This document shows positions 8,048-15,818 of a DNA stretch of 64,000 bases, one piece after another (position 1 is the first letter of the stretch; the number at the start of each line of letters is the position of its first letter). The translations under genes were made by a program, and so were the position numbers. The notes below the pieces were generated by a model, which was not told the DNA's origin, made no database searches, and saw only the letters and a list, made by a program, of their open reading frames with translations. The stretch is from Capsulimonadales bacterium (GTDB lineage: Bacteria; Armatimonadota; Armatimonadia; Armatimonadales; Armatimonadaceae). The stretch lies in the NCBI GenBank assembly GCA_033762295.1, contig JANRLW010000062.1, positions 1-64,000 of the forward strand, in the 5' to 3' direction.

Positions 8048-10243
8048 TCACCGTTTCGGCGAATTCGCCTGACTCCGCTCCCGGAAGAACGCAGGCTCGT
8101 CCCGCACCATCTCGCCCAGACGATCCCGAAGCTCGCGATCCCGAACGGCGACCGAAACGACCGCTCCCGCATACAGAAGCAAGAGAACACCGGCCAGCGG
8201 AAGCCCGATCCGGTAGAAACCGCGCACCATCCCGACCGATACCGGCAGCCGTCGACGGTAACTTACCAGAGCCAGGACAAGCAGTCCGAGCGCCGGAAAC
8301 GCCAGTCCGGCGGACGCCAGGATCGACGGCACCCGAATGATTTCGAGGACCGTTCGGACGGCGTCACCGGTATCCGGGGGCGCGGGTAACAAAACGGACA
8401 GATCGCGCAAAAAGACGATCGGACCGGTCATCAGCAGTCCGCCGATCAGCGCCACGGCCAAAGTGATCATCACGGTCCGGAACGGCAGGAACCGGTTGGT
8501 CGGCGCACCGAAACCGGCGGAGACCCCTTCCGATCTCCTTCCGCCGGTTTGCGGCGAACGACCGGCGAGAAACAGACATAGCCCCGCCAGCACGAAACCG
8601 GCCGGAACCAGAAAGACCCCGTACGTATCCATGGTCGCCGCTCCGAAAAGGAACACCGGGACCGCCGTCAACAGGGCGAACCCCTGCGCCACGCCGGGCG
8701 GCATTCGCAACCCGCGCCGAACGGGTTCGGTCCGGACCAACTGTGCCGCCACCACGAACAACAACAGGGTCCAGATCGCCGCGAAAAGCAGAACGAACGA
8801 CGTACCGAACAGCATCAGGTACCCCGACATCCCCGGAAGCCCGGTGTTGAAGGTGTCCCCATCAAAGCCGAAGGCGAGCCACCCCTGGGCGTCCTGCCGC
8901 CACCCGGAAATTACCCGCGCCTGATGGGCGGCATACCGGGCTTCCGCCGTACCGACCCGCTTCACATAGGCGTCAAACCGTCGGAGGCGTAACGCATCCA
9001 GCCGACGACTTACTTCCGCGGTCATGCCGATCGGACTCGGTCGCCCGGTACCGGCTTCCGCCACATCCTCAGGTCGGACCTCCGGTTCGCCGTCCGGTCG
9101 GTTGATCGCGATCGCTCCGACCGCCGAGCCAACCAGACCGGCAAGGATCGTGGAGCCATCCCGCTGCATCTTTCGTGCGATCCGCAACAGGGCAAACCGG
9201 ATTGCGAACCCCTCCGCTCGTTTTCCCGTCGATTCCAGCCGTATGGCCTCGGCGTTCGCCGCACGCGCCAGCGCTCGAATCCGGGCCGTGTAAGCGTACA
9301 GGGTGGTCGAGCCGACGGCAAGCCGGGAAACGACGCCGGTTTCCCCGTGGGCCGCCATGGAAACGGCCCATTTGGCCCGGACCGCCTCCGGCGCATAGTC
9401 ATGAAACCGGTCCCTCGCCCCGGCCCGCCGCAGGGCCGCCATCGCTTCGTCGCGGCGACGATCCGACAGAAGGAACGCTGCGCGCATCAGCGGGAAAAAG
9501 GCGTTCTCCGGATCGGCCGTCTCACCGGCTTCCGAGTACGCCAGGCATTGCCGAACCAGTGCGGGGTCGTTCTCTCTTTTCGGAGCGGGCGTCCCTCCCG
9601 GCGTCTTTCTTCGGGTTTCTCCTTCCGTCTCCGTCGCGACGGAGGCAGGAGCGGCATTCAGGAGGAGTGCAAGGATTGTGGCTCGCTGTCGCTCGGGCGC
9701 CGGCAGGATTTTTTGCAGGTGGGTCCAGTGGTTGTCGGCCTCGTTGGGCCGCATCAACACCGCGCCGATCCGTAAGGTCAGGTTCTCCGGGTCGCGCCGG
9801 ACGGCGTTCGTGTACGCCGCCTGTCGATCCGTCTCGCTTTCCGGACGAACCAGGGCGACGACCCCTTCCGCAGCCAGGGAACGTAACTGTCGGCGGACGA
9901 GCCACCCGGTCGGCGGCAGGCAGCAGAGGGTCAATACGACGGTCAGCGCGAGAGCCGGCAAGGCAAAATGCCGTCTTCCCGGCGGCGGCCCCGCCCAATC
10001 GTTCGCTCCCCGACCGTCCGCGGTCGCCTCACCGGTCGGGATCGCAGGCCAGGTCGGCGCGGGTCGCCCCGGCGTCACCTCGCTGATTCGGCGAATATCG
10101 GCGTACAGCGTCCGGATCTCCTGCCATTCACGCTGCAGAGCGGGGGACCGCTCCAGATGACGGTGGACGAGCCAGCGATCCACCTCGGACAGTTCATCGG
10201 CCGCCAGATCGGGCAATTTGCGACGCGCCTGATCCTGATTCAT
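8048..10243 (-). CDS. Large multi-TM putative anti-sigma factor with degenerate zf-HC2 N-terminus
   Basis: Follows and overlaps an ECF sigma; GAAAGGAG SD; N-terminus LAADELSEVDRWLVHRHLERSPAL; one TM, a helical domain, then about 6 TMs. Confidence 0.65.
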   Translation of the reverse strand: MNQDQARRKLPDLAADELSEVDRWLVHRHLERSPALQREWQEIRTLYADIRRISEVTPGRPAPTWPAIPTGEATADGRGANDWAGPPPGRRHFALPALALTVVLTLCCLPPTGWLVRRQLRSLAAEGVVALVRPESETDRQAAYTNAVRRDPENLTLRIGAVLMRPNEADNHWTHLQKILPAPERQRATILALLLNAAPASVATETEGETRRKTPGGTPAPKRENDPALVRQCLAYSEAGETADPENAFFPLMRAAFLLSDRRRDEAMAALRRAGARDRFHDYAPEAVRAKWAVSMAAHGETGVVSRLAVGSTTLYAYTARIRALARAANAEAIRLESTGKRAEGFAIRFALLRIARKMQRDGSTILAGLVGSAVGAIAINRPDGEPEVRPEDVAEAGTGRPSPIGMTAEVSRRLDALRLRRFDAYVKRVGTAEARYAAHQARVISGWRQDAQGWLAFGFDGDTFNTGLPGMSGYLMLFGTSFVLLFAAIWTLLLFVVAAQLVRTEPVRRGLRMPPGVAQGFALLTAVPVFLFGAATMDTYGVFLVPAGFVLAGLCLFLAGRSPQTGGRRSEGVSAGFGAPTNRFLPFRTVMITLAVALIGGLLMTGPIVFLRDLSVLLPAPPDTGDAVRTVLEIIRVPSILASAGLAFPALGLLVLALVSYRRRLPVSVGMVRGFYRIGLPLAGVLLLLYAGAVVSVAVRDRELRDRLGEMVRDEPAFFRERSQANSPKR

Positions 10244-10880
10244 CGGCGTTGCTCCTTTCTTCATGAGAATCGGCGAAATGCCGGGGTTTCGGGGTGACGT
10301 TTGCGCCGGGCGCCAGGGAAGCCAGTTCGTCGTTTTGCAGCAGCAACCGCATCCGCCGGGTCGCCTCATGAAACCGCCATTTCACGGTCCCGACCGGCTC
10401 ACCGGTGATTGCCGCGGTCTCTCGATAGGTCAACTGCTGGCCGGCGATCAGGAGCAGGACCTCCCGGTATGCCGGTTCCAGCTGTGCGAGCGCCCGGTCG
10501 AGTGTCGTTCGATCGAGCACGCCCCGTTCGACGTCGTCCCGATGGGCCAGGGATTCGGATAACGGCAGGGTCGGCGGGGTCGCGGAGCGCTGCCGGTCGC
10601 GCCAGCGGCGAAACGCGATTCCGCAGAGCCAGGCGAGCGGTCGTCCGCGCTCGGCATAGGTCCCGCAGGCGGTATAGGAGGCGACGAACGTATCCTGGGT
10701 CAGATCCTCGGCCTCCGAACGGTTTCCCTGCGTCAGGCGCAGTAGCAGTCCCAGCACACGGGGCGCATACCGGACGTACAGCCGATCGAACGCCTCCCGA
10801 TTCCCCTGCCGCAACAGGGTAGGGGCAGGTTCGTTCTCCTCCGGGGTGCCGGCCACGTTTTCCGAAAGGGGTTTCGACAT
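10194..10880 (-). CDS. ECF-family RNA polymerase sigma factor
   Basis: AFDRLY, AEDLTQDTF, AWLCGIA and YRETAAITGEPVGTVKWR (regions 2 and 4). Confidence 0.9.
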   Translation of the reverse strand: MSKPLSENVAGTPEENEPAPTLLRQGNREAFDRLYVRYAPRVLGLLLRLTQGNRSEAEDLTQDTFVASYTACGTYAERGRPLAWLCGIAFRRWRDRQRSATPPTLPLSESLAHRDDVERGVLDRTTLDRALAQLEPAYREVLLLIAGQQLTYRETAAITGEPVGTVKWRFHEATRRMRLLLQNDELASLAPGANVTPKPRHFADSHEERSNADESGSGASQIARSGGR

Positions 10881-10939: not shown

Positions 10940-11977
10940 CTATTTTTCGCTTGCCGGCGCGAGGAGGGCACGAAGTTCGGGATACTCCCGGAAACGCCAG
11001 ATCAGACCGTCGGTGTAGTAGTGGAAGATTACCAGCATGGTGGCGGGGACGAACACCCACATCGCCCAGCTGTCGGGATGGAGCAATCCCTCGATCTCGA
11101 TCACGCCGACGACCGCGCCGTACAGCAACGCCACCGCCGCCCACTTCATCGCCACATTCCGGATATCGGGGAAGCGACGCCGCTGAAAATGCATCATCCA
11201 GCCGTGATACTGGACATCATGGTAGGCGGTTTCCAGGGCTTCCGCTACCAGAAACGGTGTCGCCGTGGCGAAAAAGACGAAGAAATGGGTCGAAAGCGCG
11301 GACCCCATCAGCAACAGTTTCGGCAGATTGACCGGCTTTCCGGTTCCGGCCCGCCAGACCTGTCGAAAGACCACCAGGGTGATCAACACCAGAAACACCT
11401 TCCAGAGATTCTCGCCCCACTCACCCGGCAAAGTCGGCGCATGAACCCGGATATTTCCGTAGACGATCAGCGGATTTTTCGTATCCCCGTAGTCATTGAA
11501 GAAGCAGGCGAACATCCCGAGGTAATACGCCGCGCCGTCGAGGACGTTATCCGCGGGTTCCCGATCGTCGTTCAGCGCCTTGTAGATTTTTATAAAGCCC
11601 CAGTGCTGTCGAATGATATGCCAGGTGCCGTAGATCGCCGCGCCGACGATCAGATACGCTTCCCACTTCAGCAGGAGGAACACATACCCGACCAGAATGA
11701 ACCCGGCGAGTCCCCAGGTGTAGAGCCGTCGGCGTTTGGCGAACTCCTCACGGTCGAAATGGGTCCGGGAAAAGGTCTGGAAGATATGCGGGTGATCGAA
11801 GAACGCCGTAAAGAGAAAATAGGTAATCAGCACGGAGTCGCCGCGCCAGAGGAATCCCAGGTGATGCGCCGTCTGATAGATGCCGAAAAAGGCGAAGGTC
11901 AGGAGGCAGGACCCGATGAAAAAGGTCAGGTCGTAACCCGGCGAGACGATCCAGCGAACGGGCTTCGGCGCGCTCAC
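10940..11977 (-). CDS. Polytopic membrane protein with several His motifs (putative metal-dependent membrane enzyme)
   Basis: About 9 hydrophobic segments; DHPHIFQT, WHIIRQHWG, HDVQYH and FHYYTDGLIW motifs; GTG start overlaps the speD stop (GTGA). Confidence 0.7.
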   Translation of the reverse strand: MSAPKPVRWIVSPGYDLTFFIGSCLLTFAFFGIYQTAHHLGFLWRGDSVLITYFLFTAFFDHPHIFQTFSRTHFDREEFAKRRRLYTWGLAGFILVGYVFLLLKWEAYLIVGAAIYGTWHIIRQHWGFIKIYKALNDDREPADNVLDGAAYYLGMFACFFNDYGDTKNPLIVYGNIRVHAPTLPGEWGENLWKVFLVLITLVVFRQVWRAGTGKPVNLPKLLLMGSALSTHFFVFFATATPFLVAEALETAYHDVQYHGWMMHFQRRRFPDIRNVAMKWAAVALLYGAVVGVIEIEGLLHPDSWAMWVFVPATMLVIFHYYTDGLIWRFREYPELRALLAPASEK

Positions 11978-12372
11978 CGTGCGCTCTCTCCCCGTCGCTG
12001 AACCCGTCGCCCGGTGCGTCCCGGCGCAAGGGCGGCGCAAAACACGTCCGCCGCCCGGATCGCCGTCTCCTCCGAGCCGCAGGTAAAGACGTCCGCCGCG
12101 ACAAAACCCCGTTCCGGATAGGTATGAAACGCGATATGCGACTCCGCCAGCGGCACAAACCCGGTCAGTCCGCCGTTCGGAAACCGATAGACGACCGGAT
12201 CGGAAAGGCAGGTCAGGCCCGCGGTCTCCGCCGCCTCGATCAGGGTCCGACGTAACCGCTCGCCATCCGTCACCCGTTCCTGCGCCACCGCATACAGGTC
12301 CAGCAGTACGTGAACGCCGACGCCGTTTTCCGCCACGGAGGGTTCCCGCGCCTCAGGAAACACGTCGATCAC
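11974..12372 (-). CDS. speD: Pyruvoyl-dependent S-adenosylmethionine decarboxylase proenzyme (class 1B)
   Basis: GVHVLLDL and GLTGFVPLAESHIAFHTYPERGFVAADVFTCG with the ESH autocleavage site; GTGA overlap with speE. Confidence 0.85.
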   Translation of the reverse strand: MIDVFPEAREPSVAENGVGVHVLLDLYAVAQERVTDGERLRRTLIEAAETAGLTCLSDPVVYRFPNGGLTGFVPLAESHIAFHTYPERGFVAADVFTCGSEETAIRAADVFCAALAPGRTGRRVQRRGESAR

Positions 12373-13961
12373 TCCCATTTTCGCGTGCCTTTCTCGTAAA
12401 GATCCAGAATCCGGGGAAAATCCAGGGTCGACGGTTCCGAGACGACCCGATCCGTGTCGGCATCGAACGCCGCCATGCCGATCGCCGATGCGCTGTTGAG
12501 AAACCGGGTCGGCACCGGGCTTTCGGCGAGGCGCATGCCGGTCAGTTTCGGCGCGGCCTCGACCCCGGCCAGAATGAACCCCCACTCCCCGAACGATGGC
12601 ACGTAGACATGATACGGGGTCGTACGGAACCCCGCCTCGCTCATCGTCTTCTCGATACACCAGAACGCCTCCCGGGCGACCAGCGGCGAGGTCGCCTGAG
12701 TGACGAACACCCCACCGACGCCCAGACGGGTTCGCGCCAGCCGGTAGAACTCCCGCGCGTACAGTTTCGCCAGCGCTTCATGATTCGGGTCCGGCAGGTC
12801 GGCGATAATGACCCCGTACCGATCGCTTCCCTCTTCCAGGAATTTGAACGCGTCGGTGTGAACGACACGAACCCGCGGATCGTTCAGGGCATTCTCGTTC
12901 AGCCGCACCAGGGCAGGGTAGGTGCGCGCCAGCCGGGTCATCTCCGGGTCGATGTCCACCAGTGTCACCCGCCGGACGTCGGGATACTTCAGCGCCTCCC
13001 GGACCCCGAGACCGTCCCCGCCACCCAGAATCAACACCTCCTCGCGGGACGCCGACAGCCGCATCGCCGGATGCACCAGGGACTCATGATAGCGGTACTC
13101 GTCGTTCGCCGAGAACTGGATGTTGCCATCCAGGTACAGCCGGATATCGTCCCGCTGCCGGGTGATAATGATCTTCTGATACGGCGTCTGCCGGGCGAAA
13201 AGGATGGCGTCCTCGTAGAGACGACGCTCGAGCAGAGAGGCGCCGCGATCGGCGAAGGCGACCCCGGCGGCCAGTCCGGCGGTCGCCAGCAAGGTCGCCG
13301 TCCACGGCCCACGGATCGGCAGCCGGTGGCGGAACACATGCAGGTTATACATCGCGATGCCGAGATTGAGCAGACCGACGACGAAAGCGGTCCGGGTGGT
13401 CCCGAGCAACGGCAGCAGAACGAGGGGAAACGCGACCGAACCGAGCAGCGACCCGACATAGTCGAAGGAAAGCGCATGGGCGATGGTCGTTCGCAGCGCG
13501 CCGTACCGCCCGAGCAGACGGGTCAGCAGCGGCAGCTCGATCCCGACCAGACCGCCGATCAGGATCAGCAGACCGAACAGGGCGACGTAGTAGCCCGCCC
13601 CGAGGTAGGCGTAGGCCGCGAACAGAGTCCAGGCGGACAATCCTCCGACCGTCCCCAGAACGATTTCGACGGTCAGAAAGGTGGACAGAAGGTTTCGACC
13701 GACGAACTGCGAAACGTAGGACCCCAGTCCCATCGCGCCGATAAAGGTGCCGATACAGAGGGAGAACTGGGTGACCGACGATCCGAGAAGGTACGAGGAG
13801 ATCGTCGCGATCAGCAGTTCGTAGATCAGGCCGCAGGCCGCGACCAGGAAGACCGACGCCAGCAGCGTCAACGCTTCCTGGCGCATCGCCGGCGTCAGTG
13901 CGGTCTCCTGCGCGTGCGGCGAGTACCGCGTTTCCTCCGTGCCCGGGGCCGGGGTTTCCAT
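12369..13961 (-). CDS. speE: Polyamine aminopropyltransferase with N-terminal ~7-TM domain
   Basis: CGLIYEL TM domain; QTPYQKI, LYLDGNIQF, YHESLVHP, VLILGGGDG and DLPDP. Confidence 0.9.
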   Translation of the reverse strand: METPAPGTEETRYSPHAQETALTPAMRQEALTLLASVFLVAACGLIYELLIATISSYLLGSSVTQFSLCIGTFIGAMGLGSYVSQFVGRNLLSTFLTVEIVLGTVGGLSAWTLFAAYAYLGAGYYVALFGLLILIGGLVGIELPLLTRLLGRYGALRTTIAHALSFDYVGSLLGSVAFPLVLLPLLGTTRTAFVVGLLNLGIAMYNLHVFRHRLPIRGPWTATLLATAGLAAGVAFADRGASLLERRLYEDAILFARQTPYQKIIITRQRDDIRLYLDGNIQFSANDEYRYHESLVHPAMRLSASREEVLILGGGDGLGVREALKYPDVRRVTLVDIDPEMTRLARTYPALVRLNENALNDPRVRVVHTDAFKFLEEGSDRYGVIIADLPDPNHEALAKLYAREFYRLARTRLGVGGVFVTQATSPLVAREAFWCIEKTMSEAGFRTTPYHVYVPSFGEWGFILAGVEAAPKLTGMRLAESPVPTRFLNSASAIGMAAFDADTDRVVSEPSTLDFPRILDLYEKGTRKWE

Positions 13962-13976
13962 AAAATCGGAATCCGT

Positions 13977-14300
13977 CTACGGCGAAAGGATCGTCGCCGC
14001 GATGATCAGGCAGACGCCGAGGACGATCGCGCCCGCCAGAACCGCCGCCGCCATGTTCTTCTGTTCGAAGATCTCCTTCTCGATATCGTGGCGGACGACG
14101 ACATCGAAGAGTTTGAAGCCGACGATGGCGAGAATGATCCCGATCGCGCCGAAAACCAGCGTGCCGACGATGCTCTGTAGCATATCCCGACTTCGCGCCG
14201 GTGCGTTCGCCGGGTCCTGCGCCCAGGCCGCCGCCGAAAACAGCACGGACGTAAACGTTACCGCCGTCCTCCCCAGAAGCCGCCCGATCCTTGTCCTCAT
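13977..14300 (-). CDS. DUF350-family membrane protein
   Basis: FKLFD...DIEKEIFEQKNMAAAVLAGA motif with two TMs and a signal-like N-terminus; GGAGG SD. Confidence 0.8.
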   Translation of the reverse strand: MRTRIGRLLGRTAVTFTSVLFSAAAWAQDPANAPARSRDMLQSIVGTLVFGAIGIILAIVGFKLFDVVVRHDIEKEIFEQKNMAAAVLAGAIVLGVCLIIAATILSP

Positions 14301-14328
14301 GCCCATCCTCCCGATCCTCCGTCGATCT

Positions 14329-14517
14329 TTATTTCCCGTAACGCGGTCCGCCATCGATATCGATTCCGAGCCGGGCCGTTCGCTGCTGCAGAATCATCCG
14401 TTCGCGGATGGCGGCGTCATCCGTGGTGGAGATCCCCCACCCCAAATAGGACGCGGTCATCGACAGAAGCAACAAGCAAACCAGAACCGCCAGGGTGAAT
14501 CGGTATCCGATGCCCAT
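14329..14517 (-). CDS. Small single-TM protein ending GGPRYGK
   Basis: GGAGG SD; located between DUF4178 and DUF350 genes; N-terminal hydrophobic helix. Confidence 0.75.
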   Translation of the reverse strand: MGIGYRFTLAVLVCLLLLSMTASYLGWGISTTDDAAIRERMILQQRTARLGIDIDGGPRYGK

Positions 14518-14531
14518 CCGTTTCCTCCCGT

Positions 14532-15818
14532 CTAACTTTCCCAGACCTTTTTCTGCGCCGTGACGGAAGCCATTGCGAGAGCGATCAGCCCGATCCCCAG
14601 GGCAGGGAAGCCGAACCAGAGCAGATGGCTCGGGCAGGCGACTCCTTCCTCGATGGAGAAGAAGACCGCAATCTCCGGACTTCCGGGCGGCAATTCGGTT
14701 CCGTTGGGTCCTTCCGGGTCCGTGAAGACACGAACGAACACCTGACGCGGCTTGTCGAGATGGTACTCCTGCTGGGCGGCGGTCACCGACTCGCTCCAGT
14801 AGCCGTCATCATAACCGCTCTCGGCCCAGAACTCGCCGTCGAGTCCGAACAGCGGCTTTCCTTCCGGCGTTTCGATCACGCCCTGCGCCCAGGTGGACCG
14901 GTTATTCGGCACGCCGGCCGACAGACGGAATCGGGACGGACGGACGGTCTCCTTCAGCGCGAAAGGGCCGAAACGCAGCCCTTCCTCCGGCACCCGAACC
15001 CCTCCGGTCGTGCCCTGCGCAATGATTGTGCCCGTGTTCGGCATCAGGAAAAACCCGGCGAACGCGAAAAAGGCCATCCCGATCACGTACCACCCGAAGT
15101 TCCGTTGCGCCCGCGCCCTGCTTGCCTGAGCGATCTCCTTTCGGAGGAGATCGTCCAGACCGAACCAGGTCAGCACCTCCCGATCGTCCAGGGAACGACA
15201 GCGATACCACTCCGCCTCGCCGGTATCTTCCTTCAGTTCGAACCCGTAGGCGTCTCCGCCCATGGCCACGTCGGCGAAATAGAACGACTGACCGACACGA
15301 ACGGGCCAGGGCAACGCCCCTTCAATATCCGTGACCTCGCAGGTGCCGCAGTCCCGAACCGTTCCCATCCGACCGAAAACCGGAATCGGCATCCCTTCGT
15401 ACGCCTTCAGCGCCTGGCGAACGCTCTCCGGACCGGCAGGCTCGGTCGGTTCGGCGAGCAGCCACTTCCCCGCCTCAAATTCCAGATATCTCTCCTCGCC
15501 GTCGGAGGTCAGCAGAACGAACGTCTGCCAGAAATAGTTTTCATCCGTGCCCGTATCGGTGTTTCTCACGGTCTGACGATACGCGACGATCGCCACGAGG
15601 AAGTAGGTCCGCCCCGCCAGTTGCGCCTTCATGCCGACCCGAAGCGGCGTTCGATGCGGCACGGGATCGCCGGGACGAGCAAAATGGGATCGTGCCGGAA
15701 TCTCCTTCCCGCAGCGGGCGCAGACATAACCCGACCGGCCGGAGGACGGCAGGAAGGCGAATCCGCCACAGGCAGGACAGGTGGTTTCCGATGGTTCAGG
15801 CATACCCGGTTGATCCAT
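14532..15818 (-). CDS. DUF4178-domain membrane protein with N-terminal Zn-ribbon
   Basis: CPAC...CARC, TPLRVGMK, YFWQTFVL, EGALPWPVRVG and FWAESGYDDGYWSE; two TMs; operon context. Confidence 0.75.
   Translation of the reverse strand: MDQPGMPEPSETTCPACGGFAFLPSSGRSGYVCARCGKEIPARSHFARPGDPVPHRTPLRVGMKAQLAGRTYFLVAIVAYRQTVRNTDTGTDENYFWQTFVLLTSDGEERYLEFEAGKWLLAEPTEPAGPESVRQALKAYEGMPIPVFGRMGTVRDCGTCEVTDIEGALPWPVRVGQSFYFADVAMGGDAYGFELKEDTGEAEWYRCRSLDDREVLTWFGLDDLLRKEIAQASRARAQRNFGWYVIGMAFFAFAGFFLMPNTGTIIAQGTTGGVRVPEEGLRFGPFALKETVRPSRFRLSAGVPNNRSTWAQGVIETPEGKPLFGLDGEFWAESGYDDGYWSESVTAAQQEYHLDKPRQVFVRVFTDPEGPNGTELPPGSPEIAVFFSIEEGVACPSHLLWFGFPALGIGLIALAMASVTAQKKVWES

Follow-up and report, generated by a model that had tools for sequence, protein, structure and literature searches.

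A six-gene operon lies in a 64,000-nucleotide stretch of DNA from a Capsulimonadales bacterium of the phylum Armatimonadota (contig JANRLW010000062.1, positions 1 to 64,000 of the forward strand; hereafter the window). It is a real copy of a published, unsolved envelope module built around a membrane-fused aminopropyltransferase (gene 4), extended here by a membrane protein with four conserved histidines (gene 6). What is new in this operon is gene 6, a member of an unnamed family that has neither a Pfam entry nor a match to a solved fold. We propose the 62-residue product of gene 2 as the likeliest aminopropyl acceptor, and the best explanation of the whole is a system for modifying envelope proteins, which we hold with about equal measures of belief and doubt. 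The components are the following (aa, amino acids; TM, transmembrane; MFS, major facilitator superfamily; AdoMet, S-adenosylmethionine):

14532..15818, minus strand: gene 1, 428 aa, zinc ribbon, divergent DUF4178 domain, TM helix, beta-rich domain and a further TM helix
14329..14517, minus strand: gene 2, 62 aa, TM helix at residues 7-25 and a Gly/Arg-rich tail ending in GGPRYGK
14332..14334, minus strand: codon of the C-terminal Lys62 of gene 2, the proposed modified residue
13977..14300, minus strand: gene 3, 107 aa, DUF350 (YjfL/UPF0719), signal-like N-terminus followed by two TM helices
12369..13961, minus strand: gene 4, 530 aa, PRK03612-type membrane aminopropyltransferase with seven TM helices
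13314..13913, minus strand: residues 17-216 of gene 4, six-helix MFS half, assigned by structural match and residue conservation
12381..13235, minus strand: residues 243-527 of gene 4, aminopropyltransferase domain with a GGGDG motif and intact D388/D391
11974..12378, minus strand: gene 5, SpeD, soluble class 1b AdoMet decarboxylase, 134 aa from the ATG at 12378 or 132 aa from the GTG at 12372
10940..11977, minus strand: gene 6, 345 aa, ten-helix membrane protein with H64, H120, H253 and H319 as well as Q124, D61 and D323

An earlier note on this DNA had described six co-oriented genes with gaps of at most 28 bp, five of them encoding membrane proteins, and both descriptions stand: all six open reading frames (ORFs) are on the minus strand, genes 1 to 4 are spaced by 14, 28 and 15 bp, genes 4/5 and 5/6 overlap, and hydrophobic segments are found in five of the six products, SpeD having no membrane segment. 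The statement that the last three genes are joined by GTGA overlaps holds for SpeD and gene 6 (4 bp), and for SpeE (gene 4) and SpeD only if SpeD starts at the GTG at 12372; with the in-frame ATG at 12378 the latter overlap is 10 bp. The guanine-cytosine content of the operon is typical of the window, and scans for promoters and terminators gave chance-level results only. Three of the gene labels pass family cut-offs, namely DUF350 (PF03994, 46.8 bits, cut-off 26), the transferase (NCBIfam PRK03612, 622 bits, cut-off 472, residues 18-529) and SpeD (AdoMet_dc, 96.9 bits; TIGR03330, 99.7 bits, cut-off 75.65), and Pfam and NCBIfam searches with genes 1, 2 and 6 themselves returned no match. The label DUF4178 was thus not borne out for gene 1 directly (no match to PF13785 at E ≤ 0.1). 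Since its positional orthologues, at about 30% identity, do pass PF13785 (L016, 56.8 bits; L065, 49.5 bits; L117, 38.7 bits; cut-off 25), gene 1 can be regarded as a divergent protein composed of a zinc ribbon (N-terminal, CxxC...CxxC), a DUF4178 domain and two TM helices; a PF13785 scan of the L153, L161 and P0278 proteins gave no match. Gene 1 is a probable scaffold or chaperone.

Operons combining a 7TM-fused spermine/spermidine synthase with DUF350, DUF4178 and a lipoprotein were described by Ravi et al. 2024 (PMC11237479; bioRxiv 10.1101/2020.09.24.301986). In the portions of that work drawn upon here, PspA-less variants carry AdoMet decarboxylase (AdoMetDC) and polyamine oxidase, the operons are linked to membrane structure and to the PspA/CesT-Tir and Band-7 stress scaffolds, M. 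tuberculosis Rv2597-2601 are listed in the supplement, and polyamine monitoring or 'aminopropylation of other substrates' is proposed, citing Li et al. 2019. As the core is described there without a substrate, it is known and unsolved, and the claim of an 'undescribed system' in the earlier note must be given up, since both the DUF4178/DUF350/7TM-synthase operons and their AdoMetDC/oxidase variants were already on record. For a related PspA operon, experimental data are said to be nonexistent in the part consulted of a 2024 paper (PMC10948618). The present operon is like those of Ravi et al. in uniting DUF4178, DUF350, the 7TM-fused synthase and AdoMetDC. It differs from them in having no PspA/CesT, Band-7, lipoprotein, DUF2617 or oxidase gene and in having, by comparison with the portions available, a 62-aa Lys-ended peptide and a four-His protein; no gene of the strict PspA-linked form (CesT/Tir-PspA dyad, DUF4247/DUF2617, or Band-7 plus polyamine oxidase) occurs in it. 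In the main text and one supplement file of Ravi et al. the word 'lysine' appears 0 times, and a literature search covering few subscription papers yielded no publication in which a Lys-tail substrate or the four-His family is named.

The structure model of gene 4 (predicted local distance difference test, pLDDT, 88.9) has seven membrane helices. Residues 17-216 resemble one MFS half (VIA Z 19.3, root-mean-square deviation (rmsd) 3.1, 192 residues aligned to 9w1p; VIA Z 15-19 and rmsd about 3 against many MFS chains), and only one such half is encoded, whereas residues 243-527 match the T. thermophilus aminopropyltransferase 1uir (VIA Z 36.7, rmsd 2.5, 278 residues aligned). The domain shares its fold and active-site residues with 1uir and with E. 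coli SpeE (3o4f), but unlike soluble aminopropyltransferases gene 4 has the MFS-half fusion, a predicted outward topology and obligatory-looking partners. The active-site residues Q262, Q282, Y291, H292, D316, D370, D388 and D391 are invariant in 89 of 89 homologues. According to the part of PMC11107197 that was available, the acid of the GGG(D/E)G motif contacts the amine of decarboxylated AdoMet (dcSAM) and, together with the catalytic Asp pair, marks an aminopropyltransferase rather than a methyltransferase. Acidic residues of the MFS half are nearly invariant as well (E48 kept in 87, E99 in 88, and E142 and D167 in 89 of the 89 homologues), which would suit a cationic cargo such as dcSAM. 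MFS halves start and finish on the cytoplasmic side, and therefore the seventh helix should place the enzyme domain outside. The positive-inside rule agrees with this outward placement: over the 89 homologues, the mean number of Lys plus Arg is 1.9, 2.9 and 3.1 in loops 2, 4 and 6, compared with about 0.1 in loops 1 and 3 and 0.9 in loop 5, and the segment that follows TM7 carries a net acidic charge. From the model and these loop charges, a transferase domain facing out of the cytoplasm is very likely. Complex prediction of this domain with the peptide tail gave 0.44, 0.22 and 0.01 in three runs (median 0.22, mark 0.32) and is counted neither way. The AdoMetDC beside a membrane-fused SpdSyn-like protein also recalls the work of Li, Kurihara, Kim, Liang and Michael from 2019, in which a functional AdoMetDC reportedly adjoins such a protein, one that makes no spermidine, in clusters with DUF350, and MFS/SpdSyn-like fusions are said to fail to complement E. 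coli speE; to our knowledge that work named no substrate for the fusion.

The evidence for a substrate comes from gene 2 and its counterparts. All 32 small proteins collected from related loci (17 by sequence clustering, 15 by position) end in Lys. For a controlled count, 217 transferase ORFs were reduced to 127 at less than 80% identity and then to the 89 whose upstream sequence reached 3 kb or more, L213 having been excluded beforehand and locus L160 contributing three paralogues. The rule required Lys as the last residue plus either at least three Gly in the last 12 residues or an aromatic-His before the end, within 6 kb. An ORF with such a tail lay on the operon strand at 64 of the 89 loci and on the opposite strand at 5; with other last residues, the same rule gave 27 and 18 for Gly and 27 and 35 for Arg, and a strand skew like that of Lys was seen for no other residue. 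Of 5549 long ORFs in the organism's own genome, 21 satisfy the rule. Relaxing it post hoc to [GHV]K in the 1.6 kb upstream brings the count to 73 of the 89 loci, a few of them probably by chance. The carriers of the tail are unrelated, comprising 57 small peptides and 16 longer ORFs, among which are lipoprotein-like proteins and eight fusions to DUF4178 proteins (L170, L244, L191, L221, L240, L255, L265 and L268). In the 20 residues ahead of the tail end, Lys makes up 1.2% and Arg 12.4%. The side chain of Lys resembles one half of a putrescine molecule, a likeness that would account for the active site being intact although no spermidine is made. At L160 (G362:C13:1-18000), three membrane aminopropyltransferase paralogues are found within 18 kb, two with a Lys-tailed partner of their own and one with an oxidase and a His gene.

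DUF350 also accompanies YjfC/YgiC, for which the RefSeq name is peptide-spermidine ligase and the physiological substrate is not established according to the consulted part of a review (PMC11762307). The E. coli operons yjfIJKLMC and tolC-ygiBC resemble the present module in combining DUF350, a membrane-tethered protein with a Gly-rich tail and an enzyme acting on a polyamine group, and in their PspA linkage. The chemistry differs, being ATP-grasp ligation to a Gly-Gly carboxylate there and, as proposed here, transfer from dcSAM to a C-terminal Lys. Among the DUF1190 neighbours of the ligase, E. coli YgiB and YjfM both end in GG, as do those of 12 out of 17 genomes sampled; of the other five, four have GS/SS ends and one is a weak match, and none ends in Lys. 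Each enzyme type thus appears to be paired with the tail end that its chemistry needs. The two systems overlapped in 0 genomes of one 201-genome sample (17 and 21 genomes), a weak result given that about 1.8 would be expected by chance.

Gene 6 is in all probability a dedicated partner of the transferase system. Among 201 genomes of its own phylum, the transferase occurs in 13 and a close gene-6 homologue in 9, all of which belong to the 13; one further match, a distant one, comes from a genome not among the 13. Around 52 gene-6 loci from several phyla, which were fetched via gene 6 and scored for neighbours within 8 kb, the grouping claimed in the earlier note proved to be conserved, with the transferase present at 22, a DUF4178-like gene at 19, DUF350 at 17 and SpeD at 15. 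At 29 of the 30 other loci the transferase is elsewhere in the genome (one fragment only), so that it occurs in 51 of 52 genomes with a close gene-6 relative, against a background of 13/201 in the phylum and 70/201 in a Cytophagales-centred order sample. In the latter, 18 of the 19 genomes with a close gene-6 homologue are among the 70 with the transferase, and 15 more genomes have a distant homologue. In 12 of these 15 it is the last gene of an operon that also contains the transferase and a flavin adenine dinucleotide (FAD) oxidase, and 11 share the order SpeD, DUF4178-like, Lys-peptide, DUF350, transferase, oxidase and then the distant homologue. The close and distant groups are resolved as separate clades, with support of 0.98 and 0.87, and 123 of 188 leaves descend from their common ancestor, a pattern suggestive of two recruitments or an old association. 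In the clade of this operon the oxidase is missing at 17 of 17 loci, in 49 of 50 genomes and in 19 of 19 Cytophagales genomes, missing in this last count meaning not found with the query used, which failed to find a divergent oxidase in G362; the oxidase is present in 17 other Cytophagales genomes. No flavin oxidase orthologue was found in the organism's own genome (best score 31.5 bits). The partner oxidase at L149 has a twin-arginine translocation (Tat) signal above the cut-off. Near loci picked by their transferase, a member of the gene-6 family was found at 0 of 19 in Pseudomonadota and 2 of 23 from metagenomes; gene 6 is accessory and is absent from many copies of the system. At L047 (6264-9014) the His-protein gene directly follows a CesT/Tir-PspA pair, the transferase being elsewhere in that genome.

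Gene 6 has 260 close homologues, and its family comprises 1376 representatives when clustered at 50% identity. The model (pLDDT 92.2) shows ten long helices and an outer beta-hairpin. Across 187 sequences, H64, H120, H253, H319 and Q124 are retained in 186-187, and the four His sit 12-17 residues into helices 2, 4, 8 and 10, which by loop charge run from outside to inside, a depth consistent with one intramembrane metal site. This suggests, from residue conservation, a membrane metalloenzyme-like protein with a putative metal site at the four His. Searches gave no relatives of known function: none of 103 family members matches Pfam at E ≤ 0.01, Foldseek against PDB and BFVD gave nothing at E ≤ 0.001, a PDB sequence search with a 103-row profile found no match, the ESM Atlas returned unnamed clusters only, and NCBIfam yielded single-member chance matches only. 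Where kinship of fold with fatty-acid hydroxylases/desaturases, CREST proteins or cytochrome b561 is concerned, the best VIA match is to rhodopsins (Z 7.0, rmsd 5.7, 171 residues aligned), in the noise range for helical bundles. With Brp/Blh (PF15461) and other His-motif membrane metalloenzymes gene 6 shares four His on separate TM helices, a likeness of pattern only; homology to Brp/Blh was rejected (hhalign profile-profile probability 11.8% over 32 columns). The one pointer towards redox chemistry is P0209, a family member fused to an FAD/NAD(P)H reductase module. We tentatively favour an oxidoreductase; hydrolase or transferase activity appears unlikely, and lipid-acting or permease roles take the rest. 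Members P0264 and P0276 have repeat-like C-terminal extensions.

These observations can be combined into a mechanism. In SpeD, the spacing of S80/H85/C100 equals that of S63/H68/C83 in the T. maritima enzyme (spacing from the part of PMC10407285 consulted), and P88 may correspond to the Pro in Fig. 8 of that paper that is diagnostic of true AdoMetDCs as opposed to the neofunctionalised SpeDA and SpeDC forms. With these motifs intact, cytoplasmic SpeD would most probably make dcSAM. The MFS half, probably as a dimer, would then carry dcSAM across the membrane, a step that the model and the acidic residues lead us to favour by a little. The outward domain would, again with a slight balance of probability in favour, transfer an aminopropyl group to the epsilon-amine of Lys62, the last residue of the gene 2 peptide, with DUF350 and the DUF4178 protein holding the peptide. 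The product would be a membrane-tethered Gly-rich tail with a polyamine-like cap, of the same kind as the sister operons of DUF350, DUF1190(..GG) and peptide-spermidine ligase would make by other chemistry. More speculatively, the four-His protein may be a mononuclear metal oxidoreductase, replacing the exported flavin amine oxidase in this lineage and serving to tailor the cap, to take it off or to process what is released. The purpose is likely to be envelope-stress handling alongside the PspA/Band-7 scaffolds. Taken jointly, export of dcSAM, aminopropylation of a portable Lys tag and a four-His enzyme that tailors or erases the cap, standing where other lineages have the flavin oxidase, make up a possible but doubtful whole.

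Several points weigh against this reconstruction, every step of which was deduced from genes, conservation and models. At sixteen of the 89 loci the 1.6 kb upstream contain no such tail, although operons are often split in Bacteroidota, and a crude charge test gives the N-in/C-out orientation for only 31 of 50 small peptides. Conservation of the terminal Lys might alternatively reflect a signal for sorting or cross-linking. Judged from their positions along the helices, the four His are located between the middle of the membrane and its inner leaflet, away from the outer face at which the tail would be. The second His clade co-occurs with the flavin oxidase in 15 of 15 operon loci, and therefore the family is not in general a simple oxidase substitute; simple replacement as a family-wide rule is ruled out. 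Finally, the genomes are related, so that the co-occurrence counts, and with them the small Fisher values, overstate independence.

Among the alternatives, an outward transferase acting on a small exported amine, a lipid or a cell-wall amine is unlikely, though less so than the others. The Lys peptide would then be structural or a carrier, and gene 6 a lipid-modifying enzyme (hydroxylase, desaturase or transferase). An intramembrane His site suits a lipid substrate, lipids being common substrates of multi-His membrane enzymes. The consulted sections of Ravi et al. (PMC11237479) moreover tie the operons to membrane structure. Such a substrate leaves unexplained, however, why Lys is the last residue on unrelated carriers and is avoided internally, and no recurrent lipid-biosynthesis gene was found near 59 clustered loci. 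Of the envelope substrates listed in the earlier note (a lipid, an exported amine or the small protein), the small protein is the best candidate, and the lipid found no support. Ordinary spermidine or spermine synthesis from putrescine by a membrane-anchored SpeE, the other genes being passengers or serving polyamine export, could be argued from the catalytic residues, which are those of spermidine synthases, from the NCBIfam product name 'polyamine aminopropyltransferase' and from the fact that gene 4 is the sole GGGDG-type transferase found in the genome. We consider it very improbable, as the domain is predicted to be outside the cytoplasm, the partners are tightly conserved across phyla and such fusions reportedly fail to complement E. 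coli speE. The view of the earlier note that this is not routine spermidine synthesis is supported.

A sensor or signalling device is also quite improbable. Here the domain would bind dcSAM or polyamines and gate the MFS half, with the tail as plug or product mimic and gene 6 as a metal-binding permease or a hydrolase clearing methylthioadenosine. The association with PspA/CesT-Tir and Band-7 scaffolds, including the adjacency of the His gene to a CesT-PspA pair at L047, would fit, and 'monitors polyamine concentration' is offered in the consulted part of Ravi et al. (PMC11237479), but the fully conserved catalytic Asp and the dedicated SpeD point to turnover, and an exported amine oxidase implies a covalent amine product. 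That gene 6 is unrelated to the system and merely hitch-hikes in Armatimonadota is hardly credible. Although 30 of the 52 gene-6 loci have no transferase within 8 kb and have variable neighbours, and most of the 1376 family representatives lack a known context, 29 of those 30 genomes have a transferase elsewhere, and the family is represented by another, separate clade in the Cytophagales version of the operon; this co-occurrence and these operons have already largely refuted hitch-hiking.

If protein modification at the terminal Lys is correct, it would constitute an unrecognised extracytoplasmic modification, whose polyamine cap would be convergent with that of the Gly-Gly/spermidine-ligase system, and it would be uncommon for a cell to export an AdoMet derivative for use in reactions beyond the cytoplasm. 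PRK03612 proteins are widespread (13/201, 70/201 and 21/201 genomes in three samples) and routinely annotated as spermidine synthase, and the question of their substrate is addressed here by a single-residue candidate with a defined mass shift. Through its linkage, gene 6 offers a first way into the function of a large family that has no name.

As to other polyamine genes, the organism's genome is estimated to be 94% complete. No soluble spermidine synthase was found in it, both PF01564 matches being membrane fusions. The second of these (G000:C42:2652-5432, plus strand) is a 926-aa protein in which GLGSG replaces GGG(D/E)G; it probably belongs to another family and is a methyltransferase-like fusion. 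The genome also has a second gene of SpeD type (G000:C69:127922-128380, minus strand), unlinked to the operon and with no polyamine gene adjoining, which could be a neofunctionalised arginine or ornithine decarboxylase; on the same contig and strand, an 804-aa ORF (G000:C69:124095-126509) resembles RtcB with an intein, judging by its motifs. A deoxyhypusine-synthase homologue (G000:C125:28462-29439, minus strand) is a candidate for a homospermidine route. At L014 (7518-8199), a small ORF and a DUF6036/AbiEii-like nucleotidyltransferase gene lie between the transferase and SpeD and resemble a toxin-antitoxin pair. Downstream of the operon by 59 bp and on the same strand, the window contains an extracytoplasmic function (ECF) sigma factor (10194-10880) and a zf-HC2 anti-sigma-like membrane protein (pair at 8048-10880, minus strand), possibly co-transcribed with the operon. 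The pair was rejected as an operon member because it does not recur in the neighbour clusters of the 59 related loci.

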